DNA from: Armatimonadota bacterium
GTDB lineage: Bacteria; Armatimonadota; Zipacnadia; Zipacnadales; UBA5352
NCBI GenBank assembly: GCA_034722055.1
Contig: JAYENL010000288.1
Span: forward strand, 7,242-58,489
Length of the DNA stretch: 51,248 bases
Direction: 5' to 3'
Shown: positions 6,669 through 50,560 of the stretch, piece by piece
Numbering within the stretch: the first letter of the stretch is position 1
How the letters are laid out: the number at the start of each line of letters is the position of its first letter
The notes under the pieces: generated by a model
What the model was told of the DNA's origin: nothing
Seen by the model: only the letters and a program-made list of their open reading frames with translations
The model's database searches: none
Program-made: the position numbers and the translations under genes

Positions 6669-7433
6669 CTACGAGATCACCGGCCAGGCGAAAAGCAGCA
6701 GTGACAGCAGGATGCCCAGCAGAGCCCCCACCGCCACCTCCGAGAGCCTGTGGATGCCCGCCTGCAGCCGGCTCTGGGCCAGCAGCAGGGCCAGAGCCAG
6801 GGCGAGGGCGCTGACCGAGGGGCTGTGAGTGACCAGGGCGATGGAGGCGGCGATCAGAAAGCCCAGGGCGGTGTGGCCGGAGATGACGCCGCCGGTCAGG
6901 AAGGACCGCCAGCCCGTGGCGCGCTTGATCCAGACGATCAGCACCGCCAGCAGCAGCATGCCCACCAGGACGATCTGCAGCGGGCCCAGGTGCGGACGGG
7001 CGGGCAGCTCGGGCGGCCACTGCAGGAGCCGCAGCACGTTCTCGTTGGTGGCGAAGATCATGGCGCCCGCCAGCAGAGCGTAGATGGAGCAGATGAGCAC
7101 AGCGGCGGCGGCCACGTCCTTGACGACCTTGGCGACCTCGTTCCAGTGCTCGATCTCCAGGTCGATGAGGCCCTCAATGGCCGTGTTGAAGACCTCGGCG
7201 GTGAGGACCAGGACCATGGCCACCAGCAGGTGCAGCAGCTCCGCGTTGGTGACGCCGAATCCCCATGCCGCCAGCAGCACCATGGCGGCCATGATTGACT
7301 GGGTGCGCAGATTGTGCTGGGTCTTGAAGACGTAGTAGAGGCCCTCGAAGGCGTGGTGGAAGCTATCCAGGGTCGAGCGGCGCTTCCACGGCCTCTGTGG
7401 CTGCTGCTGGTCGTCCTGGGGCCGATCACTCAT
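6669..7433 (-). CDS. dgkA: Diacylglycerol/undecaprenol kinase (DgkA) fused to a PAP2-like phosphatase domain
   Basis: SFHHAFEG, EVFNTAIE and KDVAAAAV DgkA motifs; C-terminal SGH and SRLQAGIH PAP2-like motifs; directly follows ybeY. Confidence 0.85.
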   Translation of the reverse strand: MSDRPQDDQQQPQRPWKRRSTLDSFHHAFEGLYYVFKTQHNLRTQSIMAAMVLLAAWGFGVTNAELLHLLVAMVLVLTAEVFNTAIEGLIDLEIEHWNEVAKVVKDVAAAAVLICSIYALLAGAMIFATNENVLRLLQWPPELPARPHLGPLQIVLVGMLLLAVLIVWIKRATGWRSFLTGGVISGHTALGFLIAASIALVTHSPSVSALALALALLLAQSRLQAGIHRLSEVAVGALLGILLSLLLFAWPVIS

Positions 7434-7860
7434 CGTCGCTGAGCAGCTCCCTCATGTGCTGGAGGACGCCCTCCTGCAGCTCGGTCATCTCAGCGCGGGC
7501 CTCCGGAGAGTGGTCCTCGTAGCCGAGAACGTGCAGCACGCCGTGGGCCACGAGCAGGCACAGCTCAGTCTGCAGCGAGTGCCCGGCCTCGTGCGCCTGC
7601 CTGCGGGCGGTCTGTGCCGAGACGATGACCTCGCCGGCCAGCCGTCCAGCCTCCTCCTCGGCCTCGAAGGCGATAACGTCGGTGGCGGCATCGGTGTTCC
7701 GGAACCGGCGGTTGACCTCCCGGATGCGAGTGTCGTCCACAACGGCGATGGAGACCGCGTCGAGGGGGCGGTCGCCGGCAGCTCGCGCCCCCCGGGCCGC
7801 CTCGGCCAGGACCCGGTTATCGACGGGCAGCTCCTCCAGATTGCGGATCTCGACCTCCAT
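7426..7860 (-). CDS. ybeY: rRNA maturation endoribonuclease YbeY
   Basis: NRRFR, TDVIAF and the zinc motif HGVLHVLGYEDH. Confidence 0.95.
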   Translation of the reverse strand: MEVEIRNLEELPVDNRVLAEAARGARAAGDRPLDAVSIAVVDDTRIREVNRRFRNTDAATDVIAFEAEEEAGRLAGEVIVSAQTARRQAHEAGHSLQTELCLLVAHGVLHVLGYEDHSPEARAEMTELQEGVLQHMRELLSDDE

Positions 7861-7866
7861 CGTGGC

Positions 7867-10092
7867 TCAGGCGCGGGCGGCGCGCTCGAGATCGGCCTCG
7901 TCCAGCGCCTCCTCTTCCTCCTCCTGCTCCGGGTATTTCAGCCGCTGATGGAAGATGCCGTGCAGCGTGGCGACGAAGCTGTCGCGAATGGTGTGCAGGT
8001 CGGAAAAGGTGAGGGGGGACTCGTCGAGCTGGCCGTCATCCACCTTCTGTTCGATGATGCTGTCCACGAGCTCCTCGATCTGGTCATGCGTGGGGTTGAC
8101 GAGGGTGCGGGCGGCGGCCTCCACGGAGTCGGCGAGCATCACCAGCGCGGCCTCCCGGGTCTGCGGCTTGGGCCCGGGGTAGCGGAAGTCAGTCTCGTTG
8201 ACGTTCTCCTCGCCATCCTGCTCCAGGGCCAGGTGATAGGGGTAGGAGGCCAGGGAGGTGCCGTGGTGCTGGCGCACGATGTCGGCCACCTGCTGTGGGA
8301 GGCCGATCTCGCGGGCCAGCTCGTAGCCGTCCCGGACGTGAGCCATGAGGGTGAGGGCCGACAGGTGCGGCTTGAGCTTCTCGTGCGGGTTCTCCTCGCC
8401 GAACTGGTTCTCGATGAAGAAGTAAGGGCGCGTGAGCTTCCCGATATCGTGATACATGGCGGCGGTGCGGACCAAAAGGGAGTTGGCGCCGATCTCCTCC
8501 GCGGCCGGCTCGGCGAGGTTGGCGACCATTACGGAGGAGTGATAGGAGCCGGGCGCCTCGGTGAGCAGCCGGTGCAGGATGGGCTCATTGGGGTTCGCCA
8601 GCTCCATCAGCCGCAGGTCGGTGACCGCGCCCACGACGCGCTCGAGGGCCATGACTGCGACCACGGCCACGCTGGCGGAGATGAGGCCGGCCAGGACGGC
8701 GGCCAGGACCTGGCTGCTGGCCACCGAGAGGCCGAAGACGTCGCTGGCGATCGCGAAGAGGACGGCGTTGCCGACTCCGACCAGGCCGGCCGCACGCGCG
8801 ACGGTGAGGCTTCTCCCGCCGGCGGCGGTGATGACGTAGGCCGCGAAGGTGGAGCAGATGATGGTGGCTATCACCAGGCGGGCGTCGCTGCCGGTGGCCA
8901 CCAGACCGGCCAGCAGCCCTGCGGCCACGCTGAAGACGATGGCCAGCCGGGTGCCCAGCAGCATGGCGACCATCATGGTCAGGGCGGTGGCCACGCCGAG
9001 GGTGATGGCGCCATAGACCGACCATTGAAGGGCGATGCGGAAGCCCGCCGCGGCCAGCAGCAGGGCCGCGCACAGCAGCAGCATCTGGCGGTCGTCGGTC
9101 CACACCTGGGGCGCGAAGCGCGCCACATAGGCGCCGAAGACCAGGACGATGGCGGTCAGCAATGCCAGCAGACTCAACGCCTGGCTGGGATCGACGCTGG
9201 GCGTCATAAGTCCGAGGGCCTTGAGCATGTCGATGTGTCGCTGGGTGACGGTCTCGTCGGCGGCCACCACAACGTCGCCGGCCTGGATCTGGCGGCGAAC
9301 TGGATCGACCTTGGCCGCGGCCCGCTTGCGGAGCTCGGCCGTCCTCTCCTCATCGAAGCTCTGATTGGGGCGCAGGGAGTTGGCGGCAACGTCAGCGACC
9401 AGCCGCTGATAGGGAGGCGTAAGCGGCAGTTCGGCGGCGGCCTCTCGAACATCCTTGCGGGCCTCGGCGAGGTCGTCCGTGTTGTCCGTGATGGGGTCCT
9501 GCATCTCCTGGGTGGCAAGGGCCTGGGCATCGCGGCGCAACCGTTCCAGGACGCCCTCGCCGGCCGTCACCAGGAGGCGGAGGGTCTCGTCACTGAGCGC
9601 CACCTCGATGACCTGCTGGAGGTCGCGGACCATCTGCTCGACGTCCTCACGGGGCGCCTGAGCCTCACCCTCAGCGGGCTCGCCCGGAGGCTCGGGCGCC
9701 TCCTCGGGCGGCACGGGTGTGGCCGGCTGCTCCCTGACCTGCAGAGCAGCATCGAAGATGTCGTTGACGGTCTGCTTTACCAGCGCCTCGGCCTCGGGAA
9801 CTGCCCTGTAGAGGTCGAGCACCTCCTCGCGCGCCCGCAGCTGCTCGTCCTTGGTGGCCTGGGTGTCGGTGTAGGTGACAGAGCGTGGTGCGATGATGGT
9901 GCGTTCGGCGACCATGCCCGGCTGGAGGCTTACCTTCTGGGGCAGGAGCCTGGTGTAGAGTGCGCCGAACAGCAGCAGGGAGGTGGCCACGGCCATGGCG
10001 GCGCGGGTGTAGGTGAAGGTGTTGAGGCGCACGCCCAGCACGCTGGGCGGCTGTGCGGCGTCGTTGTTGGCGCTGCTACGCCCTCTGCGCAT
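7867..10092 (-). CDS. pgpH: 7TM-HD phosphohydrolase (PgpH-like c-di-AMP phosphodiesterase family)
   Basis: N-terminal TM, extracellular domain, 7TM block, [50 protein letters not shown]; sits between phoH and ybeY. Start 10092 chosen because it overlaps the phoH 3' end. Confidence 0.88.
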
Positions 10093-11089
10093 CCTCGATC
10101 CCGGCCCGCGGTCCGCCAGGACGCTCGGCGGCCGAGTAGGCGCGCACGACGCGCTGCACCAGGTCGTGGCGCACGATGTCGCGCTGGGTGAGCGTGCACA
10201 GCTTGACGCCATCCACGCCCTCGAGGACCTGCAGGGCGTGTCGGAGGCCACTGGAAGCCTCGTCGGGCAGGTCGCTCTGGGTGATGTCGCCGGTGACGGC
10301 CATCCTGGAGCTGAAGCCCATGCGGGTGAGGAACATCTTCATCTGCGCGATCGTGCAGTTCTGCGCCTCGTCGAGGATCATGAAGGCGTCGTTGATGGTG
10401 CGGCCGCGCATGTAGGCCAGCGGCACCACCTCAATGGTGCCATGCTCGGTGAGTCGCCGAGTCCGGTCGGTGCCGATGATGTCGTGGAGTGCATCGTGCA
10501 GTGGTCGCAGATAGGGATCCACCTTGTGCAGCATGTCGCCGGGCAAAAAGCCCAGGCTCTCACCGGCCTCCACGATGGGCCTGGAGAGCACCAGGCGGTT
10601 GACCTCTCCGGCCTTCAGGGCCGCCGTGGCGGCGGCCATGGCCAGGTAGGTCTTGCCGGTGCCGGCGGGGCCGATGCAGAAGGTGAGGTCCAGGTCGCGA
10701 AGCGCCCGGACGTACTCGGCCTGTGCGGGGGTCTTGGGGCGGATGGGCTTGCCGCGGTGGGTGACGATGACGGCCTCAGCCAGCAGGGCCTCGGAGGCGT
10801 CCTCGGACTCGTCGGTGGTGGCGCGCAGGGCGCACGTTATGTCCTGTTGCGTGGGCACGGTGCCGCCGCGGATGGCCTCCAGACAGGTGTCCAGCAGCTT
10901 CGCGGCGGTCTCGGCGCGGCCCCTGTCTCCGTATATCTGCAAGCGATCGTCACGGGGGACGATCACGACGTCCAGCTCATCCTCGATCATGCGCAGATTC
11001 GCGTCTCGCTCGCCTACCAGCGAACTCAGCTCCCCACCCTCGACCTGCACTGAGGTCGTGGGCTTACGCGTGCTCTGCTGTGACGTAAC
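10076..11089 (-). CDS. phoH: PhoH-family ATPase (YbeZ/PhoH1); start either GTG 11050 or non-canonical GTT 11089
   Basis: [11 protein letters not shown]alker [41 protein letters not shown]. Confidence 0.93.
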
Positions 11090-11194: not shown

Positions 11195-11224
11195 AGTATA
11201 TATCACCGTACCCTCGGAAGTCAA
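11195..11224 (-). promoter_or_regulatory. Sigma70-type promoter of the phoH operon, TTGACT-N18-TATACT
   Basis: Near-consensus -35/-10 in an AT-richer patch about 100 nt upstream of the phoH RBS. Confidence 0.7.
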
Positions 11225-11326: not shown

Positions 11327-12373
11327 TCAGCGCATGATGGCCTTGACGAGCTTCAAGGCCCCCTGGTTCCAGGCCACGCGGTGGGTAATACCTGTGGCCT
11401 GTCCCAGCTCGTCTTTGTGATCCAGATACCACTGGTAGGATCGGATCAGCGCCTCAGCGTTGGAGTACTGAGCCGACCAGCCCAGCGTCTGCTTGATCTT
11501 GTCCACGGCCACGAAGCTGTCAGTGTCGGCGGTGCCGTAGACCCACTTATACAGCGGCGAGAGATGCAGCGCCTCCAGCAGCGCCAGGGCGGGCTTGACC
11601 AGCCACGCCGGCGTGCCCATCACGCGGGCGCCGGTGCCCGCATACTCGCACAGCGCCCCCACGTCCTCGCGGACCGTCTGGAACTGTTCGGCGCCCACGT
11701 TAAAGGTGTCGTTGCATATGTCAGGATCCTCGGTGGCGCACAGCCACATGGCCTCACAGAGGTCCTCGACCTCCAGAAGCTGGTAGCGGTTGGAGCCGTC
11801 GCCGATGACGGGGATCTTGCAGCCGCTCTCCACCCAGTCGTAGAGGATCTGGAAGACGCCCAGGCGGGCGGTGCCGATGAAGGTCTTGGGGCGGACGATG
11901 CCGATAGGCAGATCGTCCTGGTACTGATGGCAGACCTCCTCGGCCTGCACCTTGCTCTCACCGTATGGCCCCACGCCCTCCATGGGATGGTCCTCGTGGA
12001 GGGGATGCACCTCCGGGATGCCGTAGACGGCCGTGGAGGAGACGTAGACCACGCGGGGGACGCCCAGCGCCCGCGCCACCTCCAGCGCGTTGCGGGTACC
12101 ATCCACATTCGTCGAGAAGATGTCTTCCGGCTTCCACAGCGGCAGGGCGGCGGCGGCGTGGATGAGGCAGTCCAGCTCCCGGCCCTCGAGAGCCTGCTGC
12201 AAGGCGTCGCGGTCGCGCACGTCGCAGGTGAGGAACTGCGTGCCCTGGGGGTAGTCGGACTCGATGTAGTCGGCGATGTCCAGCAGCACGAATCGGTTCT
12301 CGGGGTCCTTGCGGGCGAAGCAATTGGCGATGTGATAGCCGAGAAAGCCGGCGCCGCCGGTCATGGCGATCAT
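11327..12373 (-). CDS. NAD-dependent epimerase/dehydratase (extended SDR)
   Basis: TGGAGFLG, IHAAA, NVDGTRN, SSTAVYG and catalytic YGESK; GGAGG upstream of ATG 12373. Confidence 0.9.
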   Translation of the reverse strand: MIAMTGGAGFLGYHIANCFARKDPENRFVLLDIADYIESDYPQGTQFLTCDVRDRDALQQALEGRELDCLIHAAAALPLWKPEDIFSTNVDGTRNALEVARALGVPRVVYVSSTAVYGIPEVHPLHEDHPMEGVGPYGESKVQAEEVCHQYQDDLPIGIVRPKTFIGTARLGVFQILYDWVESGCKIPVIGDGSNRYQLLEVEDLCEAMWLCATEDPDICNDTFNVGAEQFQTVREDVGALCEYAGTGARVMGTPAWLVKPALALLEALHLSPLYKWVYGTADTDSFVAVDKIKQTLGWSAQYSNAEALIRSYQWYLDHKDELGQATGITHRVAWNQGALKLVKAIMR

Positions 12374-12452
12374 GATCCCAGGGTCCCTCCAGAAGACGGT
12401 CTGCCGCAGCCACACCAGCGGACGAGCGATGGGATCGCCCGCCGCGGGCAGG

Positions 12453-12479
12453 TTCGGGCACAACCTGCCCTCGACCTTC
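12453..12479 (-). promoter_or_regulatory. Putative sigmaH-like promoter GAAGG-N17-CCGAA for the epimerase gene
   Basis: Matches the recurrent motif; overlapped by the inverted repeat GGGCAGGTT-N7-AACCTGCCC (12446-12470). Confidence 0.5.
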
Positions 12480-12552
12480 AACGCGGCAGTCGGCACCCAA
12501 GGTTCCTGCGCGGCTGCGTGGAGACAGCGGGGCCCGCAAAGACGGCGCTCTG

Positions 12553-12581
12553 TTGACCACCGGGGGAGGCGCGCCTATAAT
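12553..12581 (+). promoter_or_regulatory. Sigma70-type promoter TTGACC-N17-TATAAT
   Basis: Perfect -10, 5/6 -35 and 17-nt spacer, 63 nt upstream of the nucleotidyltransferase ATG. Confidence 0.85.
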
Positions 12582-12644
12582 CGGGGCCACTATCTGGAGA
12601 GCCGCTGGCGGTCACCACGCCAACGCCGCGATGCGAGGTCGAGC

Positions 12645-13340
12645 ATGAACGCCATCATCCTCTGCGCAGGGCACGGGACGCGCCTGCGCCCCCTCACCTA
12701 CTACCTCTCCAAGGCCATGGTGCCGGTTGCGGGCGTGCCAGTGATCGAGCACATCATCGTTCGGCTGCGCGATCACGGCTTCGACGAGCAGATCATCGCG
12801 CTGTCGTGGATGGCCGATCAGGTGACGCACTACCTCGGCGACGGCAGCCGCCTGGGCGTGCAGATCCAGTACTCCATCAACACTGAGCCGTCGGGCACGG
12901 CCGGCGAGGTCCATAACCTGCGCGAGCTGCTGGAGGGCGAGGAGCACATCCTGGTCCATTACGGTGACATCCTCACGAACCTCGACGTGCGCGGGCTTGC
13001 CGACGAGCACCTGGAACGTCAGCCGACCGCCACGCTGGGGTTCGTGACCGGAATCGCTTTCCATGCGGGGGTGGCGGAGGTGGCCGACGACGGCACGGTG
13101 CTCAGCTTCGTGGAGAAGCCGCCCATTGAGAAGCCCACGAACGCCGCGGTCTTCGCCCTCAGCCGCCGGGCGCTGGACTACTGCGGGCCGGGCAGGGACT
13201 TCTCGCGGGACGTCTTTCCGGAGCTGATCGCGGCCGGGGAGGTCGTCCGGGGCTTCGTGGATCGCGAGGCGTGGTGGATTGACGTGGGCCGGCTGTCGGA
13301 CCTGGAGAGGGCAAACGAGTTCCTCGGAGGAGGGCATTGA
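12645..13340 (+). CDS. NDP-sugar pyrophosphorylase / nucleotidyltransferase (mannose-1-P guanylyltransferase-like, no hexapeptide domain)
   Basis: AIILCAGHGTRLRPLT..SKAMVPVAG, GDGSRLG, SGTAG, HYGD, FVEKP, WIDVG. Confidence 0.9.
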   Translation: MNAIILCAGHGTRLRPLTYYLSKAMVPVAGVPVIEHIIVRLRDHGFDEQIIALSWMADQVTHYLGDGSRLGVQIQYSINTEPSGTAGEVHNLRELLEGEEHILVHYGDILTNLDVRGLADEHLERQPTATLGFVTGIAFHAGVAEVADDGTVLSFVEKPPIEKPTNAAVFALSRRALDYCGPGRDFSRDVFPELIAAGEVVRGFVDREAWWIDVGRLSDLERANEFLGGGH

Positions 13341-15673
13341 TGAGCATCGAGACCACGGGCGAGCAGCAGGCGGACCGGGCGCTGACGGCGGCGCTGAAGT
13401 CCAAGGCGGTGGATCTTGGGGCGGACCTGGTGGGCGTGGGGCCGGTGGAGCGCTGGGAGGGCGCGCCGGCGCAGATGCATCCGCTGGGGCACTGGCCCCA
13501 GGCCCGCAACGTGGTGGTGGTGGCGATTCACCATCCGGACGCCTGCGTGGAGCTGGGCGGCATCCCCGACGCGCACCACATGGGCCCCTACGGCGTGCAG
13601 GGGAAGATGAACGAGCGACTGGGATACATCCAGTTCCACCTGGCGCGGTGGCTGGAAGGGCGCGGCCACGGCGCGCTGCCCATCCCACCCACCAACATCT
13701 GGCGCTACCGGCCCTTCCGGGAGATCGAGCGGCCCTTCGGGCCCGACCTGTCGAATATCCACGCCGCGGCGTGCACCGGGCTGGGGGAGATCGGCTACCA
13801 CGGGCTGCTGATGACCCCGGAGTTCGGCACCTGGCAGCGCTTCTGCTGCATGATCACCGACGCCCCGCTTGTGGCCGACCCCGTGTACGCCGGCCCGTCG
13901 CTGTGCGACCGCTGCGACGCCTGCGTCCGCATGTGCGAGGATCAGTGCGGCGGCGCGCTGGCGCACGAGGTGACCGGGGACGTGGTGCTCAACATCGATG
14001 GGATACAGTTCCGGTACGCCGAGAAGAACCTGTGGCGCTGCGCCTGGAGCGAGCACTTCGGCCTGGACGCCTTCCTGGACATCCCACCGCATGTGACCGA
14101 GGAGGTGATTCTCGAGAAGCTGCGCGAGCATGGGCGGCGCGGCGGCACTCAGGGGCCGTGCCTGAAGTACTGCCGGCCGCCGCACCTGCGGGGCCGCTAC
14201 CTGCACAAGGAGGTGCCGCCACAGGCGCCTGCGGATCGGCGGCTGACAGAGCGCATCAGGCGCATGGCGCGCGACGGCCACATGTCGCTGGTGGGGATCA
14301 TCTCGGCCGACCGCTGGGAGGAGGGTGAGGAGAACGATCCCCGCGAGCAGCTTCCGGACTGCCGCTCGGCGATCGTCTTTGCTGTGGACTGGCCGACGGA
14401 CTCCGACGTGTCGGGCTGCGGTCCGCTGCGCGAGCCCTGTGAGGCCGCACGGTGGGGCGCCTCCCTGCTGCTGGATCACCTTGAGCTGGACATGACCAGA
14501 GAGCTGGAGCGCTGGGACTACTACAGCGTCTGCCACACTACCTTCCGACCGCAGGAGGCGGCGGAGAGACTGGGGCTGCTGGAGAGCGTGGACGGCCAGC
14601 TCTTCAGCCCCCGCTTCGGCAATCGCCTGGCGTGGCGGGCGGTGCTGACGCAGGCGCCGCTGGCCGAGACCGCCACCGAGCTGGTCGAGTCCCGGAAGAG
14701 AGCGGCGCCGACGCTCGAGGAGCTTCGGGGCATGGTTGCCGAGGACGGCGCGGATCTGGTGGGCGTGACCTCGGCGAAGGCCGTCGCCGAGATCGCCGAG
14801 GAGCTGCGCGAGCAGATCGACGAGGACGCCCTGAAGGTGAACGTGCTGCAGAAGGGGCCGATCCACGGGCAGATCGAGCCGGAGATCGCCAGTCGGGAGG
14901 GGGCGCGCGTGTTCGCGCCGGAGGACTGGGTGGCGGGGGCGCGGTCGGTGATCGTGTTGGGGATGGGCTACCCGGCGCAGACGCTCGACCGCGCCGGCGA
15001 GGAGCCGGCGGTCGCCGTGGGGCCCTACGCCTTCGCCAGCTATGAGGTGACCCGCGACATCGGCATCGACGCCCTGAACATCGCGCGGGAGCTGGACCGC
15101 CGGGGCTTCCGGGCGGCGATCACCTACGACGTGACGGGCGTGGGCTCGAAGACGCAGAACCCGCGGTTCGCGACGCCGGACATCTTCTCCGGGCGCGTGG
15201 AGGCTGCGGCGGCAGGGCTGGGCGTCATCGGCCGTGGCGGCTTCGTCATCACCCCCGAGTTCGGCGTGCGCGTGCGCTGGGCGGCGGTCGTCACCGACGC
15301 GGAGATCCATCCCACAGAGGCCGTGGAGGGCTTCGACCCCTGCGAGGGCTGCGAGGCGCCCTGCATCCCCGCCTGCCCCGTGGCGGCCCTGGCCGAGGGC
15401 GAGGAGACCTGCGCCGGCGGCCGCTGCTTCGCCGCCCGAGACCTGCTGCGCTGCGACTGGGCGAAGCGCTACGCGCTGGTGGCCGATGAGGGGCCCGGGT
15501 TCATGGGCTCCACGACCGATGTGCCGCCGCCTGCGGGCGAGATCACGGCGGAGGACATCGCGGAGGCCATCCGCACCCGCGACCCTCTCCAGCGGCACCT
15601 GGACTGCATCCTGGAGCCCTGCCTGAAGGCGTGCCACGAGGTGCTGCGGGCGAGGGGGATCGGAGCTGCGTAA
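13340..15673 (+). CDS. Triple-module QueG/reductive-dehalogenase-like cobalamin and 4Fe-4S protein
   Basis: Three repeats of the module (GADLVG.../RSVIV/GLG.IG..G...TPEFG..R...TDA). Modules 1 and 3 carry Cys clusters (CDRCDACVRMC...RCAW...PCLKYC and CEGCEAPCIPACP...RCDW...C.LEPCLKAC); module 2 lacks them. TGATG overlap with the upstream stop. Confidence 0.8.
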   Translation: MSIETTGEQQADRALTAALKSKAVDLGADLVGVGPVERWEGAPAQMHPLGHWPQARNVVVVAIHHPDACVELGGIPDAHHMGPYGVQGKMNERLGYIQFHLARWLEGRGHGALPIPPTNIWRYRPFREIERPFGPDLSNIHAAACTGLGEIGYHGLLMTPEFGTWQRFCCMITDAPLVADPVYAGPSLCDRCDACVRMCEDQCGGALAHEVTGDVVLNIDGIQFRYAEKNLWRCAWSEHFGLDAFLDIPPHVTEEVILEKLREHGRRGGTQGPCLKYCRPPHLRGRYLHKEVPPQAPADRRLTERIRRMARDGHMSLVGIISADRWEEGEENDPREQLPDCRSAIVFAVDWPTDSDVSGCGPLREPCEAARWGASLLLDHLELDMTRELERWDYYSVCHTTFRPQEAAERLGLLESVDGQLFSPRFGNRLAWRAVLTQAPLAETATELVESRKRAAPTLEELRGMVAEDGADLVGVTSAKAVAEIAEELREQIDEDALKVNVLQKGPIHGQIEPEIASREGARVFAPEDWVAGARSVIVLGMGYPAQTLDRAGEEPAVAVGPYAFASYEVTRDIGIDALNIARELDRRGFRAAITYDVTGVGSKTQNPRFATPDIFSGRVEAAAAGLGVIGRGGFVITPEFGVRVRWAAVVTDAEIHPTEAVEGFDPCEGCEAPCIPACPVAALAEGEETCAGGRCFAARDLLRCDWAKRYALVADEGPGFMGSTTDVPPPAGEITAEDIAEAIRTRDPLQRHLDCILEPCLKACHEVLRARGIGAA

Positions 15674-15730
15674 ACGGGGCAGAACAGGGAGAGCGAAAGG
15701 CGAACAGCTCGCAGCGGACATCGGTGAACC

Positions 15731-16720
15731 ATGACCACGGTCAGCCTGCGCGTGCCCGGCAGGATCTGCCTGTTCGGGGATAAGATCGATATCGCCCACA
15801 AGCCCGTCATCGCCGCGGCCATCGATATGTTCATGTCCATCGAGGCCGAGCGCGCTGACGGGCCAGGGGTGACGTTGTACAGCCACGACTACGACGAGAC
15901 CGAGCGCTTTGAGATCGGCGAGGAGCCGGACATCACCGGGCATATGAAGTACGTGCAGGCGGCGGCGTGGCTGCTGCGCGAGAGGCTGCCGGGGGGATTC
16001 TCGATGCGCTTCTCGAGCGGCATCCCTATCGAGGCAGGGCTGAGCACCTCCGCGGCGCTGACGGTGGGCGCGATCATGGCCCTCGATGAACTGTTCGACC
16101 TGCAGATGAGTCTCAACGAGATAGCCGAGACGGCCTATGTGGCCGAGCATGACGTCTGCGGCATCTCCTGCGGCCGCATGGACCAGTATGCCATCGCCCA
16201 TGGCGGCGTGACCTTCATCACCACGGGCGAGCCCGCCTCCGCCGAGGTGCTTCCCATCGACGAGCTGCCGGTGGTGGTCGGCGATTCGGACGAGCCCCGG
16301 CACGCGTCGGAGGTGCTCAGCCGCACCCGCCGGCGCCTGGAGGAGGGCGATCCGGTGGTGGTGGAGGCCTTCGAGAGGCTGCACCAGTACACGCTCGCCG
16401 GCCGGGAGGCGCTGGTGGCAGGAGACGGCCCGCGGGTCGGCGAACTGATGACACGAAGCCAGGTTCAGGAGAAGCGGATCGACGCCTCGACGCCGAAGAT
16501 CGAGCGGCTGTGCGCGGCCTCCGTCGAGGCCGGCGCTCATGGGGCGAAGCAGATGGGCGCCGGCGGCGGGGGGTGCATGGTGGCGTACTGCCCCGGTCGC
16601 CAGAGGGAGGTGGCGGCGGCGATCGAGGCGGAGGGCGGCATTCCGTACATCTGCGACATCTTCAGGTGGTCGCCGGCCACGCAGGCGCGCGTCGGAAGCG
16701 GGGACGAGTCCGAATCGTGA
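15731..16720 (+). CDS. GHMP-family kinase (galactokinase/mevalonate kinase-like)
   Basis: PGRICLFGD, IPIEAGLSTSAA ATP loop, CGRMDQY, GAKQMGAGGGGCM. Confidence 0.9.
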   Translation: MTTVSLRVPGRICLFGDKIDIAHKPVIAAAIDMFMSIEAERADGPGVTLYSHDYDETERFEIGEEPDITGHMKYVQAAAWLLRERLPGGFSMRFSSGIPIEAGLSTSAALTVGAIMALDELFDLQMSLNEIAETAYVAEHDVCGISCGRMDQYAIAHGGVTFITTGEPASAEVLPIDELPVVVGDSDEPRHASEVLSRTRRRLEEGDPVVVEAFERLHQYTLAGREALVAGDGPRVGELMTRSQVQEKRIDASTPKIERLCAASVEAGAHGAKQMGAGGGGCMVAYCPGRQREVAAAIEAEGGIPYICDIFRWSPATQARVGSGDESES

Positions 16721-17991
16721 AGCGATCATCTACTGCAGCGCTCATCGCCGTGCTGGTAGCGGTCGCGGTGGCGCCCGCGCATGCGGGCGACATTGTGGAC
16801 GCCATCACGGCGCGGGTGCCCACGTACGCCCACTCCTACGCCGAGCTGATGGCGGCGCTGCAGGAGCTGCATGTCACCGAGAGAGTCACCTGCAGGAGCC
16901 TGGGGACCACCAGCACCGGCCGGACCGTGGCAATGGCGACGGTTCACGACCCCGACTACGACCCGGCCGATCTGCGCAGGTTGCTGATCATCGCGCGCCA
17001 GCACGGGAATGAGCCGGCGGGCACGGAGGCGGCGCTGGCGCTGCTGCGGCACCTGGCGGCCAGCGAGGGGCGCGCGGAGCGGGCGCTGCTGCGGCACGAG
17101 GCGCTGCTGATGATTCCCATGGCGAACCCCGACGGGGCCTGCCGGTCGGCGCGCCGCAACGCGGCGGGTGTGGACCTCAACCGCGACTGGCAGGCCCTCA
17201 GCCAGCCGGAGACGCGGGCCATCGAGGCGGCCTTCGAGAGCTGGCGGCCGGACGCGGTGATCGACCTGCACGAGCTCCCGGCGGCCTCCGGCAAGCCCTC
17301 CTACCAGGAGAACTTCGTGGAGACGATCGGGCGCTGCGAGGCGCTGCCGGCGCTGCTCGGGGAGCGCTGCGGCCGGACCGGCGCCATGCTCTCGGTGTGG
17401 ATGAAGCGCTACGGATTCCCGCTGAACTGCTACTACGATACGCCCGGGGACGACACGCGGCTGTGCCACCGGCACTTCGGCCTCGTGCATCAGGTGCCCT
17501 CATACCTCTTTGAGTCCAAGACGGGCCGGGGCAGGAGCCTGGCTGCCCGCGCGCGCTATCACATCCTGGGGATGCTGGTGGTCGCCAACCAGGTCGCCTA
17601 CCATCACGATGACCCCCTGGGGGCGGTACAGGTAGCGGCCGCGCCGCCCAGCCCGGAGCCGGAGGACGAGACCCACGTCGAGCCCGTCCCGGCGCGGAGG
17701 ACGGTGACTCTCGGCGAACCCCTGCCGGATGCCCAGCGCGAGAACCGGACGCTGCTGACCTGCGAGCTGGCGGGCGACGCCGGGGAGTTCGCCTACCTGA
17801 CCTTTGAGGTGAATGGGCGCGTGCTGGTGATGACGAATCGGGAGCCCTATCGGTACTCCCTGGATCACGCACAGTGCCCCGAGGGGCAGATCCGGGTGGC
17901 AGCGCGGGCCTTCGACGTCACCGGACGGTGCATCGCCAGCGACGAGCGGACAATGACGCTGCTGCAGCCGGGCGCGACGCTTGGGGAGTGA
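16717..17991 (+). CDS. Secreted M14 zinc carboxypeptidase with C-terminal Ig-like domain
   Basis: GTGA overlap start; signal peptide ending APAHA; QHGNE, NPDG, RRNAAGVDLNRD and IDLHE M14 motifs. Confidence 0.85.
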   Translation: MKRSSTAALIAVLVAVAVAPAHAGDIVDAITARVPTYAHSYAELMAALQELHVTERVTCRSLGTTSTGRTVAMATVHDPDYDPADLRRLLIIARQHGNEPAGTEAALALLRHLAASEGRAERALLRHEALLMIPMANPDGACRSARRNAAGVDLNRDWQALSQPETRAIEAAFESWRPDAVIDLHELPAASGKPSYQENFVETIGRCEALPALLGERCGRTGAMLSVWMKRYGFPLNCYYDTPGDDTRLCHRHFGLVHQVPSYLFESKTGRGRSLAARARYHILGMLVVANQVAYHHDDPLGAVQVAAAPPSPEPEDETHVEPVPARRTVTLGEPLPDAQRENRTLLTCELAGDAGEFAYLTFEVNGRVLVMTNREPYRYSLDHAQCPEGQIRVAARAFDVTGRCIASDERTMTLLQPGATLGE

Positions 17992-17996
17992 GCTGA

Positions 17997-20024
<2,028 letters not shown>

Positions 20025-20097: not shown

Positions 20098-20165
20098 GAG
20101 TTTGAAGTGAGGGTGCGGGACACTGCACTGTGCGGCCTCTGGGACTGATGGAGGGAGGCATTGAG

Positions 20166-20900
20166 TTGGGCTCGCGGGAGGCCTTTATCCGCTACTGGCT
20201 TCCGGCGGTGGTCTGTGCGGGGCTGATCCTGGTGGGGACGTCGCTGCCCAGGCCGCCGAGCCCGGGGATTCCCGGCAGCGACAAGGTGGCGCACCTGCTG
20301 GCGTACGCGGCCCTGGGTGTGCTGCTGATGCGGGCCTTTGGGGCCGAGAGACGGATGCCGGCCGTCCGCTCGGCGTTTGCGGCGGTGCTTGTCGGGGGGC
20401 TTTACGGGGTGATGGATGAGCTGCATCAGACACTCGTGCCGGGCCGATACTGCTCGGGTCTGGACATGGCTGCTGACGGCGCCGGGCTGGTGCTGGGGGC
20501 GGTCATTGTGGTACTGTGGTGGAAACGAAACCGACGACGTTCGGGGATCGCAGTCGCGCAAGGAGAGAGACAGACAATGGCGGAGCCGGTGCATGTTGAT
20601 CAGGCTGCCTTCGAGGTTGAGGTCCTGGGCTCGGACGTACCGGTCATGGTCGATTTCTGGGCGCCGTGGTGCGGGCCGTGTCATATGGTGGCCCCGACCC
20701 TCGAGCAGCTTGCCGCTGACTATGACGGGAAGGCCAAGATCGCGAAGGTGAACGTCGATAACAACCCGGACCTGGCCATGAAGTACGGGATCAGAAGCAT
20801 TCCTGCGCTGCTGGTGTTCAAGGGCGGTGAGGTGGTGGACATGCTCATCGGCGTGCAGCCGGAGGACGTGCTGAGACAGAAACTGGACGCGCTCGTGTGA
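20166..20900 (+). CDS. VanZ-family membrane protein fused in frame to thioredoxin
   Basis: GGAGG 7 nt before TTG 20166 (ATG 20148 is an alternative); DKVAHLLAY, DELHQ..VPGR and DMAAD VanZ motifs; no stop before the thioredoxin domain. Confidence 0.75.
   Translation: MGSREAFIRYWLPAVVCAGLILVGTSLPRPPSPGIPGSDKVAHLLAYAALGVLLMRAFGAERRMPAVRSAFAAVLVGGLYGVMDELHQTLVPGRYCSGLDMAADGAGLVLGAVIVVLWWKRNRRRSGIAVAQGERQTMAEPVHVDQAAFEVEVLGSDVPVMVDFWAPWCGPCHMVAPTLEQLAADYDGKAKIAKVNVDNNPDLAMKYGIRSIPALLVFKGGEVVDMLIGVQPEDVLRQKLDALV
20577..20900 (+). CDS. trxA: Thioredoxin (probable internal start inside the fusion ORF)
   Basis: VDFWAPWCGPC, GIRSIP; AAGGAG at 20560-20565 before ATG 20577. Confidence 0.9.
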   Translation: MAEPVHVDQAAFEVEVLGSDVPVMVDFWAPWCGPCHMVAPTLEQLAADYDGKAKIAKVNVDNNPDLAMKYGIRSIPALLVFKGGEVVDMLIGVQPEDVLRQKLDALV

Positions 20901-20993: not shown

Positions 20994-22583
20994 ATGGAAC
21001 GAGAGAGCATGACGCACCGGCATTCACACATCATGATTATCCTGGTCAGCATCCTGATCGGGATGCTGGTGGCCACGGTGGCGTGCACGTTGCCCCAGCA
21101 GAGCGCCACCCCGGCGATGGCGCAGGATACGCCCAGCGCCACGGCGCTGGAGACGGAGTTCACGCGCGTCGCCGAGGAGGTGCTGCCGGCCGTGGTGCGC
21201 ATCAACGTCGAGAGCGGCCCGGCCGAGGTGCCCGGGATGGAGGGTGTCCCGGAGCGGTTCCGGGAGTTCTTCCGGCAGTTCCCCTGGTTCGAGTTCCCGG
21301 AGGAGGAAGGCGAGGGTGGCGTGCAGCCGGTGCCACGGCCGCCCCGGCAGGGGGTCGGCTCAGGGTGGATCTACTCGGATGATGGCTACATCGTCACCAA
21401 CGCCCACGTGCTCGAGAACGCCCAGAAGGTGACCGTGGTGCTGCACGACCGCGAGAACGACGATAAGGAGTATCCCGCGGAGATCGTGGGTACCGACCCC
21501 AAGACGGACCTGGCAGTCGTGAAGGTGGACGCCGGCCGCACGCTGCCACACCTGAAGCTGGGGAGCTCCGGTGACCTCAAGGTGGCCTCCTGGGTTATGG
21601 CGGTAGGCGCCCCGTTCGAGCTGGAGCAGACCGTGACAGTGGGGGTGGTCAGCGCCAAGGGACGGCTCTGGAACGACCCGCGCAACCCCTACAACCGCAT
21701 CGAGTCCATCCAGACCGACGCCTCTATCAACCCTGGCAACTCCGGCGGGCCGCTGGTGAACCTGCGCGGCGAGGTCGTGGGCATCAACGTGGCCTACGCC
21801 GCGCCCATGCGCACGGGCAACATCGGCATCGGCTTCGCCATTCCCGCCGATACCGCCAAGCGGATCGTGCCCAGGCTCATCAAGGGCGAGAGCATCGCGC
21901 GGGGATGGCTGGGGATCAAGATCAGCCCCCTCAACGAGAACCTGAAGGAGTTCTACGGCGTTGACCACGGTGTGCTGGTCGCGGGCATCGACGAGGACGG
22001 ACCGGCCGCCGACAGCGACCTGCAGGCGGACGATGTGGTCGTGTCGGTGGAAGGCCAGCCCATCATGGACACCTGGGACCTGCAGTCGGCGATCGCGCAG
22101 AGCGCGCCGGGAGAGACCGTCACGCTCACGGTGGTGCGCAACAAGCAGGAGCGCACCATCGAGGTGACGCTGGGCGAGATGCCGGCGAAGTATGCGGGGC
22201 TGCCCGAGGAGGGGGAAGAGGCAGAGCCCGAAGAGGCGGCCGAGGAGGGTCCCCTGGGGATCTCCGTGATGCCCATTGAGGAGCTGACCCCGGAGATCGG
22301 CGCGCAGCTCGGCATCAAGGTGGAGGACGGTCACATCGCGGGCATCCCGCGCACCGAGGGCGTGGTCGTTAAGGGCCTCAAGCCCGACAGTCCTGCGGTC
22401 GGCAAGGTGCAGCCGGGCGACGTGGTGGCCAAGGTCAACGGCAATGAGATCACCTCGGTCGAGGACTTCCAGAGCGAGATGCAGAAGGCTCTGGAGGCGG
22501 ACCGGGACTTCGTGGTCCTGCACCTCACCAGGGTGTTCGAGGGCGAGGCCCTCACGCGGGTGGTGGACGTTGAGGTGGAGTAG
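20994..22583 (+). CDS. degP: DegP/HtrA serine protease with two PDZ domains
   Basis: TNAHV, DPKTDLAVVK and QTDASINPGNSGGPL catalytic motifs; RGWLGI PDZ1 and LGISV PDZ2; N-terminal signal/lipoprotein-like segment. Start may be 21009. Confidence 0.93.
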   Translation: MERESMTHRHSHIMIILVSILIGMLVATVACTLPQQSATPAMAQDTPSATALETEFTRVAEEVLPAVVRINVESGPAEVPGMEGVPERFREFFRQFPWFEFPEEEGEGGVQPVPRPPRQGVGSGWIYSDDGYIVTNAHVLENAQKVTVVLHDRENDDKEYPAEIVGTDPKTDLAVVKVDAGRTLPHLKLGSSGDLKVASWVMAVGAPFELEQTVTVGVVSAKGRLWNDPRNPYNRIESIQTDASINPGNSGGPLVNLRGEVVGINVAYAAPMRTGNIGIGFAIPADTAKRIVPRLIKGESIARGWLGIKISPLNENLKEFYGVDHGVLVAGIDEDGPAADSDLQADDVVVSVEGQPIMDTWDLQSAIAQSAPGETVTLTVVRNKQERTIEVTLGEMPAKYAGLPEEGEEAEPEEAAEEGPLGISVMPIEELTPEIGAQLGIKVEDGHIAGIPRTEGVVVKGLKPDSPAVGKVQPGDVVAKVNGNEITSVEDFQSEMQKALEADRDFVVLHLTRVFEGEALTRVVDVEVE

Positions 22584-23270: not shown

Positions 23271-23556
23271 ACCGGGCAGCATCCAGATTCGTGTGCCCAG
23301 CGCGAGGGCCGGGGAGCAGACTGTCGGAATCCCGGTGGTAGTCGAGGAGGGGCCGCGTGAGGCTCCAGCGTGGTTTGCTGGAGCCGAAGCCGGCCCGGCC
23401 GTTCGCCGTTCGAAGCAGCGCCTCGCGACGCTGTCTCGTGGGGTCGCGGGCCGGCTTCGTCGCGCATAAAGGGCATGCGCTCCTCAGGCGACCCCTCCGC
23501 GGGCATCGGCGGCGTCAGTACAGAGAACAGGCCCGTGAATCTGGATGCTGCCCAGT
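23271..23556. mobile_element. MITE-like / structured non-coding element with terminal inverted repeats
   Basis: Perfect 17-bp IR GGGCAGCATCCAGATTC (23274-23290) / GAATCTGGATGCTGCCC (23537-23553), extending imperfectly to ~27 bp; several internal hairpins; no clear target-site duplication. Confidence 0.6.
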
Positions 23557-23588
23557 ATCGCGACGTCAGCGGGGGATTCAGGCCGATA

Positions 23589-23615
23589 CCAGGTGCAGCC
23601 GTGATGAGTCGCGAA
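23589..23615 (+). promoter_or_regulatory. Putative sigmaH-like promoter CCAGG-N17-GCGAA
   Basis: Recurrent motif 60 nt upstream of ATG 23676. Confidence 0.5.
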
Positions 23616-23675
23616 CACAAGTGCGCTGGTCACACGCAGCTTGGCTGCGGACGCTCGAGAGGCAGGGACCTGACC

Positions 23676-26159
23676 ATGCGACCGATGATTGTCTGTCTTG
23701 TGGCGCTCCTCGCGGCATTGCCCTGCGCCGCCCAGGTGGATCTCATACGCGACGGGGTGGCCCGCGCGCAGATCGTCCTGTCGGCGGACGCCCACGAGAA
23801 GGTGTTGCTGGCCGCCGAGGAGCTGAACCTGTATCTGGGGAAGATGGCGGGCGCCAGGCTCCCGGTCAACGAGGAGCCGGCGGACGGACCGTACCCGGTC
23901 TACCTGGGGGCTCCCGACGCCCAATGGCGTGAGGAGGCTGAGCTGCGGGCCCTCACCTTCGACGGCTTCGTGGTGGAGTGCACGGGCGAGCGGCTCGTTC
24001 TGGCGGGGAATGTCCCCGAGGGCACACTCAACGCCGTCTACTGGCTGCTCGAGGAGCTGGGGGTGCGCTGGTTCATCCCCACCGAGCTGGGCGAGAACGT
24101 GCCCGAGATGGCCACCGTCACCATCCCTGAGATGCACAGGCGCGTCGAGCCGCGCTTCCCCTGCCGGCGCAACCACGGCATCGATCGCTCGATCCGCGGT
24201 GAGGGCGAGAAGTGGCGGCGGCGGATCCGCATCACCAGCCACGATCTCAATGTGCCCTTCAACCGCTACTCGCACAACCTCTCGCGCATTGTGCGGATCA
24301 GCGAGCACGCGGACGAGCACCCGGAGTACTTCCCCCTCATCAACGGGAAGCGGCGTATCCCCGCACGAGGCCACGGCTGGCAGCCATGCACGACTAATCC
24401 CGAGGTGGTGGCGCTGGCCGTGGAAGCGGCACACCGGTGGTGGGATCAGCACCCCTACGCCAACTACTTCTCGGTGGGGATGAACGACGGGCGGGGCTGG
24501 TGCGAGTGCCAGAAGTGCACCGCGCTGGATGTCCCCGCACACACCTTCCGCGGCCGGGACGTGAAGTCCGAGCGCTATTTCACCTTCGTCAGGGAGGTCG
24601 CGGAGGCCGTGCGGGAGACGCACCCGGACAGGTACATCTCCTGCATCGCATACTCCAGCGTCGAGCCCGTGCCCCGTGGCGTGGACCTGCCCGACAACGT
24701 GCTGGTGGTCATCACCCAGGACGTCGGCGCGTGGCAGGATCCGGAGTACGCCCAACGGGACAGGGAACTCGCCCGCGCGTGGACGGAGGCCGCGGGGGCG
24801 TTGGGGGTCTACAACTACACCAGCCAGATGTGGCTGCTGCCGCGCTTCTATCCGCACATGATGGCCGAAGCCCTGCGCTTCTACGACGAGATCGGCGCCG
24901 TCGCCATCACCAACGAGTCCTGGCCCACCTGGTGGTATTGCGGCCCCATGATGTATCTGCGCGCGAAGCTCATGTGGGACCCTCAGCAGGACCCTGACGC
25001 GGTGCTGGATAAGTACTACTCCGGCTTCTTCGGCCCTGCGCGGGAGCCAATGAAGCGCCTCTACGAGCGCTTTGAGGAGTGCATGATGACCGAACGGGAG
25101 GGCCGATGGTTCTACGGCATCAGCTCGGTGCCGGAGCAGATCGCGCTGTGGACACCCGAGCGCCTGGAGGCCAGCATCGCGGATCTCGAGGAGGCCCGGC
25201 GTCTCGCTGACGCGGAGCCCTACGATGCGCGAGTCCAGTTCGTCGCGGAGGGCTTCGCGCTGGCGGAGGCGATCCTCCGCGAGTACTGGCAGGCCGAGCG
25301 GGTGCGCGAGATGGCGAGCACCGGCGGCGTGGACACGAGCGCGCTGCTCGATGAGCTTGAGAGACTGGTGCGGCTGACGGCGCGGCGCGAGGCCATCTTC
25401 GATGAGGTCATGCAGGACGAGCTGCTGTCGGGTATCTACCACCGGCTCGTGGAGGAGCGGGGCGGGCGCCTCAACTCCTGGAAGGGTGACATCAACTCCG
25501 CGTTCGGGAGGGCCCTCGCGACGTTATACTCCCGCGGGGGCGAGGAGCTCGGAGAGCGTCTGCAGCGGATCGCGGCGGAGGCCGATGAGAGCGTGGCCGG
25601 GCAGTTTCGGGCCCTGGCCTGGATCATCGACAACCCTGGCGCTCCGAACCTGTGCCCGAACCCGGGATTCGAGGAGACCGAGGGAGACGCGCCCGAGGGC
25701 GTGGACTGGGTGACCGCGAACGCGCCGCCCGGCTGGTCGAAGTGGTCGATCGAGAGCCGGACCGACCGGATCACCTGGGAGCAAGAGGGCGGCCGCACGG
25801 AGCCACGCTGCGGCCGGATCAGCGGCGCCAGGCTCAGCACCTTCATCGCCAGCATACCAGTCCAGCCGGGAGAGCGCTACTACACCTGCATCTGGGTGAG
25901 GAGCACCGGATCAGACCAGCAGAGCCCCAGACTCGCGATCAAGTGGCAGGCCGCGGAGGGGGGCTGGGTTCGCGCTGACAGCGCGGTGACCGTCTCGGGT
26001 GAGGGCGGCGCCGGGCGGTGGCAACTCCTCGGCGTGGTGGTCGAGGTCCCCGAGGGAGCAGGACGGCTCATCATGCTCCCACGCGCGGCAGACCAGCAGG
26101 AGGGCGACGTCGTGCTGTTCGACGATGCCCGGGTCATCCGCCTGCCGGACGACCTGTGA
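23676..26159 (+). CDS. Secreted DUF4838-like protein with N-terminal GH20/GH67-type domain and C-terminal CBM-like domain
   Basis: Signal peptide MRPMIVCLVALLAALPCAA; GTLNAVYWLLEELGVRWF; HPEYFPLING; QPCTTNPEV; NDG.GWCEC..C; YLRAKLMWDP; NLCPNPGFEE CBM start. Confidence 0.8.
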   Translation: MRPMIVCLVALLAALPCAAQVDLIRDGVARAQIVLSADAHEKVLLAAEELNLYLGKMAGARLPVNEEPADGPYPVYLGAPDAQWREEAELRALTFDGFVVECTGERLVLAGNVPEGTLNAVYWLLEELGVRWFIPTELGENVPEMATVTIPEMHRRVEPRFPCRRNHGIDRSIRGEGEKWRRRIRITSHDLNVPFNRYSHNLSRIVRISEHADEHPEYFPLINGKRRIPARGHGWQPCTTNPEVVALAVEAAHRWWDQHPYANYFSVGMNDGRGWCECQKCTALDVPAHTFRGRDVKSERYFTFVREVAEAVRETHPDRYISCIAYSSVEPVPRGVDLPDNVLVVITQDVGAWQDPEYAQRDRELARAWTEAAGALGVYNYTSQMWLLPRFYPHMMAEALRFYDEIGAVAITNESWPTWWYCGPMMYLRAKLMWDPQQDPDAVLDKYYSGFFGPAREPMKRLYERFEECMMTEREGRWFYGISSVPEQIALWTPERLEASIADLEEARRLADAEPYDARVQFVAEGFALAEAILREYWQAERVREMASTGGVDTSALLDELERLVRLTARREAIFDEVMQDELLSGIYHRLVEERGGRLNSWKGDINSAFGRALATLYSRGGEELGERLQRIAAEADESVAGQFRALAWIIDNPGAPNLCPNPGFEETEGDAPEGVDWVTANAPPGWSKWSIESRTDRITWEQEGGRTEPRCGRISGARLSTFIASIPVQPGERYYTCIWVRSTGSDQQSPRLAIKWQAAEGGWVRADSAVTVSGEGGAGRWQLLGVVVEVPEGAGRLIMLPRAADQQEGDVVLFDDARVIRLPDDL

Positions 26160-26263
26160 GGTCAGCGGCGGAGGCGTGATGAGTGTGCGATGATGCACTC
26201 GCGCCTGACCGCTGCCCCATCCAGGGCCGCAGCCATGCTGGTGACGGCCGTGGCGGCGGGAGC

Positions 26264-26590
26264 CTACTCCTCGCCCCCGCGGGCGCGCAGCAGATCGGCC
26301 AGCTCGGCGTAATCGCTCTCCAGCGCCAGAGCCAGGGGCGTTGCCCCGTCGGCGTCGCGGGCGTTGATGTCCGCGCCAGCGTCCAGAAGCGCCGTGGCGA
26401 TGGCCACACGGGCAGCGCTGCGCAGCGCCTGCTCCTCGGGGATGTCGTTGGGGTCCGCGCCCTCATCCAGGAGCTGCCTGACCTGCTCGATGTCACCCTC
26501 GCTGGCCGCCTGATGGATGTCGGCCTGCGCCACCACAGTGCCGACGGCGGTCAGCACCACTGCCAGCGCCAGATTCGCGGCGGTTCGCAT
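26264..26590 (-). CDS. Small secreted ankyrin-repeat protein
   Basis: Signal peptide; IHQAASEGD, GADPN, GADINARDADGATPLALA, LLRARGG; GGAGG RBS. Confidence 0.85.
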   Translation of the reverse strand: MRTAANLALAVVLTAVGTVVAQADIHQAASEGDIEQVRQLLDEGADPNDIPEEQALRSAARVAIATALLDAGADINARDADGATPLALALESDYAELADLLRARGGEE

Positions 26591-26668
26591 CGCCGAATGC
26601 CTCCCTTCGTGACCGTATCACGCGCGGATGTCACGCTGCCGACGGGGTACCTCGTCTCAGTGCTGACA

Positions 26669-26695
26669 TTCCTCGCTGCATAGCAGACGCCCTCC
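26669..26695 (-). promoter_or_regulatory. Putative sigmaH-like promoter GGAGG-N17-AGGAA(T)
   Basis: AGG-N19-GAAT about 80 nt upstream of the ankyrin gene. Confidence 0.4.
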
Positions 26696-26787
26696 GAGGG
26701 CAGAGTCACTAGAGGTCATCTCTGGCCGGCCGGCAAAATGTCCAGAGCCCCGGCATGCGGTCAGCCAGTGCGGCGAGGTGTGACATC

Positions 26788-27768: not shown

Positions 27769-27883
27769 GGGTGCAGAAGAGATCATCGACGGCTCAGCCC
27801 GAGCCATCGGCATATACAGTGACCAGCCCGTGCGACGGATGCGCGCGAGGTATCGTTGAGCCGCCCGAGGGAGTGTCCGGACA

Positions 27884-31474: not shown

Positions 31475-31519
31475 GCACGCATGCCGATTCCGGACGAGAG
31501 CGGTATCGGAGGCAGCAGC

Positions 31520-32686: not shown

Positions 32687-32699
32687 CTGGAGCCGGCCG

Positions 32700-32721
32700 C
32701 CATTCTGGGATCCCAGAATGG
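32700..32721. other. Perfect 22-bp palindrome CCATTCTGGGATCCCAGAATGG between convergent genes
   Basis: Identical to its own reverse complement; 13 nt after the stop at 32686; could be a terminator hairpin or a binding site. Confidence 0.6.
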
Positions 32722-32784
32722 GTCCCTCCACCTCTTCACCACCATCCGGTGGCGGGCCCATGCCTGAACCATCGAAGAGTGTGG

Positions 32785-50526: not shown

Positions 50527-50560
50527 TGTAGCGTTTCTCTCCCCATTCGGACCTGACGCT

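Follow-up and report, generated by a model that had tools for sequence, protein, structure and literature searches.

The window described here is a stretch of 51,248 bp from an Armatimonadota genome (GenBank assembly GCA_034722055.1, contig JAYENL010000288.1, positions 7,242 to 58,489). Its nearest relatives are other Armatimonadota, several of them labelled Ca. Zipacnadia, a group described in the accessible part of one report as anaerobic fermenters and acetogens of sediments (PMC10290634). The DNA occurs in brine metagenome runs from a single study, possibly the ones it came from; among the runs listed, none is of RNA. The gene in question encodes a protein (hereafter the reductase) composed of three tandem modules of the fold shared by the RdhA reductive dehalogenases and the tRNA epoxyqueuosine reductase QueG. 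It lies between genes for a nucleotidyltransferase (NT) and a GHMP kinase, with an epimerase gene nearby, and a first-pass annotation had joined all four into a single cobalamin (B12)- and iron-sulfur (Fe-S)-dependent sugar-nucleotide pathway. Of main interest here is the reductase family, a genuine variant of the class III B12 enzymes that has not been studied; the four-gene set, on the other hand, is a one-family arrangement that is unlikely to be a functional unit. The four open reading frames (ORFs) are present as annotated, and the locus is laid out as follows:

11327-12373, minus strand: extended short-chain dehydrogenase/reductase (SDR) of the NAD-dependent epimerase/dehydratase family (348 amino acids, PF01370), transcribed divergently
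12553-12581, plus strand: sigma70-like promoter match TTGACC-17-TATAAT (11 of 12 consensus matches)
12645-13340, plus strand: NT of the short sugar-1-phosphate type (231 amino acids, PF00483), under all NCBIfam cut-offs
13340-15673, plus strand: reductase, three-module RdhA/QueG-fold protein (777 amino acids)
15731-16720, plus strand: galactokinase-like GHMP kinase of a distinct subfamily (329 amino acids)
16717-17991, plus strand: M14 zinc carboxypeptidase-family gene, its start overlapping the kinase stop

In searches with Pfam and NCBIfam profiles, none of the SDR, NT, reductase and kinase proteins attains an NCBIfam cut-off. The near-consensus promoter that had been seen ahead of the NT gene is there, ending 64 bases upstream of its start, as is the TGATG sequence (13338-13342) in which the NT stop overlaps the reductase start. 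The kinase gene does follow the reductase gene, beginning 57 bp past it, but the M14 peptidase gene that overlaps its stop (GTGA) had been left out. A promoter scan of the window finds two sites, against 0.4 +/- 0.7 in shuffled sequence, and 8 of 19 loci in the host family and 0 of 9 elsewhere have a comparable site in the 150 bp upstream of NT; the promoter match and the gene overlaps suggest that the genes may be co-transcribed. The second site (11195-11224, minus strand) is between the epimerase gene and phoH and precedes a string of phoH, 7TM-HD, ybeY and dgkA genes (6669-11050, minus strand).

The reductase consists of three homologous units. Profile-profile comparison pairs units 1 and 2, and units 2 and 3, at 99.7% probability, and the unit-1 profile matches unit 3 with an E value of 9e-29. 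Residue statistics are from the 104 of 120 listed reductase matches that were aligned after close duplicates and fragments were omitted.

Unit 1, residues ~12-290: seven Fe-S cysteines, conserved in 99-100% of the 104 aligned homologs
Unit 2, residues ~296-445: no Fe-S motif
Unit 3, residues ~455-772: seven Fe-S cysteines, conserved in 99-100% of the 104 aligned homologs

The earlier description of a triple QueG-like gene is therefore right about the three repeats, but Fe-S cysteines are found in units 1 and 3 only. An eighth cysteine is present in unit 3 (C756) in 59% of the homologs, and unit 1 is without one.

The AlphaFold2 model of the reductase (pLDDT 96, pTM 0.94) finds as its Foldseek neighbors, in order, the catabolic dehalogenase NpRdhA (E 1e-12), PceA, QueG and MMACHC (CblC). 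VIA-align superimposes it on PceA with Z 17.6 (rmsd 2.9, 219 residues aligned), on QueG with Z 17.5 (rmsd 3.1, 216 aligned) and on MMACHC with Z 10.1 (rmsd 4.2, 182 aligned); these alignments span mainly residues 8-439, and unit 3 is assigned by profile. The B12 core plus ferredoxin fold by which RdhA proteins are recognized is present in the predicted model, by structure in the region of units 1-2 and by profile in unit 3. The accessible text of the QueG structure paper gives QueG a strictly conserved DYH motif and Asp130, lists Tyr246, Asn272 and Arg305 for PceA, notes that the Arg305-type residue is missing from QueG and that MMACHC has no ferredoxin module, and expects further class III B12 families (PMC4646009).

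With PceA (4UQU, 8Q4H) and NpRdhA (4RAS, 6ZXU), the reductase shares the cobalamin-binding core, the ferredoxin module, the CxxCxxCxxxC motif and an equivalent of Arg305 (Z 16-17.6); R646 aligns with PceA Arg305 (counted in the alignment), and its unit-1 equivalent R167 is invariant. It differs from them in its three tandem cores per chain with Fe-S cysteines in two, in the seven fully conserved cysteines per unit, in a structural identity of 18-22%, in a score below the RdhA family cut-off (TIGR02486, 55.3 versus 160.35) and in lacking a TAT motif; a TAT-like pattern, in the form we take to be typical, occurs in the first 60 residues of 0 of 104 homologs. With QueG (5D08, 5D6S), it shares the fold and probably an aspartate, since D597 of unit 3, counted from the profile alignment, falls near the position of QueG Asp130 and PceA Asn272. 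Unlike QueG, however, it has the RdhA-type arginine, no DYH motif (absent also from the family consensus) and no C-terminal helical-repeat domain, the Pfam/NCBIfam profile search giving no HEAT match in the reductase (a true QueG in locus L200 does show this domain). It scores 60.4 against the TIGR00276 cut-off of 200, and its host uses QueH: QueH and QueA are present in the host genome, and no QueG over the TIGR00276 cut-off was found anywhere in it. A QueG identity was rejected on these grounds, and both the first-pass view that the reductase is not a tRNA enzyme and its proposed search for a canonical queG or queH elsewhere have thus turned out well. MMACHC has a similar nitroreductase-like B12 core (Z ~10) but is only 12-14% identical and has no ferredoxin module. 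By its predicted fold, the reductase thus resembles a class III B12 enzyme, yet by the tests run it is neither QueG nor RdhA. It belongs, with its three modules, to a branch of the RdhA/QueG fold that has not been studied, and probably binds B12.

The triple form is widespread. Scoring of 8,000 candidates gave at least 233 full-length clusters, a pattern for the reductase matches about 1,700 metagenome stretches, and 35 of 301 Armatimonadota genomes carry the triple form. Among the matches listed, named ones also come from Lentisphaerae, Planctomycetes and Ruminococcaceae; a search of 301 genomes from the order to which G309 belongs, a set that contains no positive control, gave no triple form. 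One copy (L016:8001-10307) lies on an archaeal-looking contig with TiaS and family B DNA polymerase genes, so the family likely reaches archaea. ESM Atlas clusters are either unnamed or labelled QueG, and a search of titles and abstracts, which left subscription journals mostly uncovered, returned no paper describing a triple-module reductase family; the accessible part of a paper on Asgard reductive dehalogenases (PMC6737245) contains nothing on this gene cluster. Variants (among them L226 on contig C189 of G219, L229 on contig C18 of G250, and P0104) include two triple genes in tandem next to an IclR gene, a copy that is broken up into two ORFs, and a fusion with an IclR HTH. The host genome also has six single-unit paralogs of the reductase (L215-L218; contigs C256, C259, C216 and C221); two are in tandem on C259 amid sulfatase-bearing flanks, and one lies ahead of two genes that resemble those of spore photoproduct lyase and apiosidase.

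The neighbors of the reductase gene were compared at 122 loci; once the 24 loci of the near clade and L013, a match with a single unit, are excluded, 97 distant loci remain, 86 of them distinct at 90% identity. The commonest neighbor is an IclR regulator gene (32 of the 83 distant loci with at least 800 bp upstream), followed by an AraC gene (14 of the same 83); these names were verified on two or three members per cluster. The IclR partners score best with PcaR and BhcR types, far under the cut-off, and two queries found no IclR ortholog in the host genome. The remaining neighbors vary among loci (201 ORFs within 3.5 kb, from rough gene calls). URO-D-family genes flank 8 of the 97, all eight being close kin, and one clade (L021, L025, L114, L119) adjoins ECF S-component, FmdE and CbiQ genes, a possible link to cobalt or B12 uptake. 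Thirteen unit-1 residues (H64, H65, E71, Y84, Q87, N119, W121, R122, D136, R167, R233, W236 and E238) are shared by all 12 near homologs and by 89-92 of the 92 distant ones, and nine positions, R165W and G610F among them, differ consistently between the two sets. Since the conserved residues are the same in both, the simplest reading is that the near-clade reductase would catalyze the same reaction as the IclR-linked copies.

Association with the sugar genes is, in contrast, a local matter. In a tree of 89 sequences, rooted at the midpoint, all NT-linked reductases group together with support 1.0, and this single clade implies a single event. NT is followed directly by the reductase gene in 20 of 20 host-family loci checked (some genomes being counted twice), and 17 of the 18 genomes of that family have the reductase and 15 the kinase. 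In three other families of the order, however, the gene immediately after NT is that of the M14 peptidase (19 of 19 genomes), and VanZ/thioredoxin and HtrA genes usually come next; the order-wide string is NT, M14 peptidase, (ligA), VanZ/thioredoxin, HtrA, and the same string continues in the window:

18003-20024, plus strand: gene of the conserved string that we take, from its motifs, to be DNA ligase-like
20130-20900, plus strand: VanZ/thioredoxin gene of the conserved string
20994-22583, plus strand: HtrA-like protease gene of the conserved string

In 8 of 8 of those 19 genomes that were also searched for the reductase, it is on another contig, and in sister families the NT, reductase and epimerase genes are on separate contigs. 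The sole NT found outside the order (G287) adjoins neither a reductase nor an M14 peptidase gene. Even in the host family, the reductase-kinase gap is between 57 bp and 3.3 kb long and is occupied by DUF3800, DUF4838-GH2 or other unrelated genes, one of them on the opposite strand in G304; the G176 kinase gene is still next to the peptidase gene but on a different contig from the reductase, and in G140 there is no kinase match. In the near clade, synteny of the sugar genes is no stronger than that of the PhoH, peptidase and ligase-like genes, and the match tables of kinase, transferase and reductase have contigs in common only there, although this last is a weak test. Because the NT genes of other families stand directly before the peptidase in all 19 genomes, the reductase and kinase genes likely entered an older NT-peptidase string in the host family, an order of events suggested by parsimony on an unrooted arrangement.

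Outside that clade, GHMP kinase genes occur at 2 of the 97 distant loci (0.67 Mb of flank in total), where about one would be expected from the nine in the 6.14 Mb host genome; the flank reaches 5 kb at only 41 of the 97. Both kinases, at L074 and L077, are paired with transferases, but the pairs are unrelated to that of the window, and L068 and L060, their neighbors in the tree, show no such pair. At L077 (4060-10262), genes for a Zn-dehydrogenase, a GHMP kinase and a GlmU-like transferase stand opposite an IclR-reductase operon and are absent from the close relative L060; among independent hints that the reductase is connected with sugars, this arrangement is the strongest. The first-pass proposal that the reductase acts with the kinase and transferase is accordingly not supported: the neighborhood comparison it called for finds linkage in the host family and no consistent linkage elsewhere, nor any recurrence of the four-gene set in independent lineages.

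The kinase itself is of interest. In an alignment of 60 of 120 listed matches, its motifs PGR, GDKxD and CGRxDQ are invariant; PGR, the Asp of GExxD, AE and CGxxDQ align with archaeal galactokinase (1S4E, 2CZ9), with GDKxD in place of the galactose-binding signature GEHxD. The Arg of PGR and the Asp of CGxxDQ, which we take to be functional residues of galactokinase, are both present. Galactokinase cut-offs are nevertheless missed (PF10509, 21.9 versus 23.1; TIGR00131, 96.8 versus 226.65), the best-scoring NCBIfam models are those of mevalonate kinase, also below cut-off, and ESM Atlas clusters are of galactokinase, glucuronokinase and heptose-kinase types. Mevalonate kinase requires Lys9 and His16, according to the accessible part of PMC6283576, and invariant Arg11 and Lys18 replace these in the kinase subfamily. 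The host genome (93% complete) has Dxr and gave no match to HMG-CoA reductase; mevalonate kinase was rejected for these reasons, in agreement with the sugar kinase of the first-pass annotation. Within the phylum the kinase is found in the host family only (8 of 301 genomes), its nearest named outside relatives among the matches listed are Asgard archaeal (~50%), and none was found among the viral contigs searched. This tight subfamily (GDKxD, CGRxDQ, KQMGAGGG), common to one bacterial family and Asgard archaea, is often labelled mevalonate kinase in databases; it is likely a mislabelled sugar kinase, and gene transfer between the host family and Asgard archaea is possible.

The pairing of kinase and transferase fares better than the rest of the proposed pathway, as NT is repeatedly found near some GHMP kinase. 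Counting the window's own, NT orthologs are near three unrelated kinds: a second, divergent kind occurs in G211, G635, G637, G625 and G631, three of which also have a different epimerase there, and G243 and G287 carry a third, galactokinase-like kind. These are 7 of 20 outside loci, many of which are kin and several short-flanked. This recurrence supports a sugar-salvage role for kinase and NT, with the reductase as the apparent odd one out. A QueG-like gene near NT in G287 was rejected as independent support, as it is a canonical QueG (395 bits). The pair resembles HddA/HddC in that a kinase lies beside a PF00483 transferase, but it falls far below those models (NF049969, 70.9 versus 600; NF049965, 68.4 versus 300). 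The NT and the M14 peptidase give weak matches to MurU and MpaA models, far below cut-off, which hints at a role for these two in cell-wall recycling. The epimerase, finally, is not a constant member of the cluster: its orthologs are in 77 of 301 Armatimonadota genomes, 56 of the 77 without the triple reductase (hand count), its neighbors differ in 11 of 11 outside genomes, and it is not adjacent in G301 or G140.

On balance, and with chances only a little better than even, we favor a stand-alone cytoplasmic B12/Fe-S reductase of a small catabolic molecule that happens to lie beside a separate kinase/NT salvage pair. By analogy with the known enzymes, electrons from a low-potential carrier, for example ferredoxin, would reach base-off cobalamin by way of the Fe-S clusters in units 1 and 3; the resulting cob(I)alamin would reductively cleave a C-O or C-halogen bond, and the RdhA-type arginines (R167, R646) may help in protonation of the leaving group, while unit 2 probably has a structural role. 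The weakest step of the proposal is the substrate, which would most likely be a small, soluble compound released when polysaccharides are broken down, and also the inducer of the IclR regulator found beside many relatives. The reductase gene, without its IclR partner, and the galactokinase-like kinase gene likely entered the transferase-peptidase string in one Armatimonadota family, where kinase and transferase would convert a sugar to the sugar-1-phosphate and then the NDP-sugar by a separate route. Several points weigh against this explanation. No CobS match was found in the host genome, also at 93% completeness, so B12 would need to be salvaged. Each Fe-S unit has seven, not eight, fully conserved cysteines, and the catalytic tyrosine is not placed, the alignment being gapped at PceA Y246 with conserved Y84, Y563 and Y568 close by. 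The tight NT-reductase junction persists down to 62% reductase identity, and retention of reductase and kinase in the host family may reflect selection rather than inertia. The kinases at both distant loci are kinase-transferase pairs, of which the host genome has one, so that two exceeds background, and the L077 pair faces the IclR-reductase operon.

In the pathway first proposed, kinase and NT would make an NDP-sugar that the epimerase and the B12 reductase modify by deoxygenation or ring opening. We consider it doubtful. The single promoter match and the TGATG overlap, the linkage maintained across the host family, the sugar-type motifs of the kinase, the pairs at two distant loci and the unrelated GHMP kinases near NT in seven outside genomes are all consistent with it. 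However, the linked copies are one clade and hence one event, the peptidase, ligase-like and PhoH genes are equally syntenic, no kinase is seen in the available flank at 95 of the 97 distant loci, and the nearest relatives of the two exceptions lack the pair; moreover, the conserved residues of the reductase are unchanged in the linked clade, and the epimerase keeps other company elsewhere. In its fullest form, with the triple family as a third class III B12 branch that cleaves sugar C-O bonds, and an Asgard-type kinase and NT activating the same sugar from one operon, the idea is similarly unlikely; if true, it would be a B12-dependent route of sugar deoxygenation or ring opening, of which no described example was found in the literature searched.

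A cytoplasmic catabolic dehalogenase acting on natural organohalides of sediments and brines would account for the rank of RdhA proteins as top matches by profile and Foldseek, the retained RdhA-type arginine, the missing TAT motif (as in catabolic RdhA) and the PcaR/BhcR leaning of the IclR partners, itself far below cut-off. It is nonetheless improbable, given the low TIGR02486 score and structural identity, the unplaced tyrosine, the presence of six more paralogs of the single-unit kind in a single, fermentative genome, and the finding of no RdhB anchor or NADPH-reductase module among the scanned neighbors. Still less probable is a cobamide-handling or electron-relay protein, performing MMACHC-like dealkylation or decyanation or reactivating corrinoids for MtaA/URO-D-like enzymes: MMACHC is the next fold neighbor, URO-D genes flank eight distant loci and one clade adjoins ECF/CbiQ transport genes, but those eight loci are close kin, URO-D adjacency is expected where the host genome has 61 URO-D/MtaA-like matches (against six PF02310 B12-binding matches), and a dedicated IclR or AraC regulator suggests an inducible substrate. 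Epoxyqueuosine reduction, the common database label of the homologs, has the shared fold and weak TIGR00276 and DUF1730 matches behind it and can be given very little credence in view of the score, the missing motif and tail, and the QueH and QueA genes of the host.

Elsewhere in the window (23370-42164 and 49102-50946) are large carbohydrate-active genes, including DUF4838, CBM9, GH42-like and two PcRGLX-like genes, and these regions also contain a B12-binding radical SAM gene.

Two reactions of class III B12/Fe-S reductases are known, dehalogenation and tRNA epoxide reduction, and the triple-module family, often mislabelled QueG, is a concrete candidate for a further family of this class. 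The window is less informative about it than first seemed, because its sugar genes are a local arrangement, and the IclR-linked copies are a better way in. A second and smaller lead is the kinase subfamily that is shared with Asgard archaea and goes under the name of mevalonate kinase. Identification of the reductase substrate would bring a further B12 reaction to light and allow annotations to be corrected in anaerobes that degrade polysaccharides.

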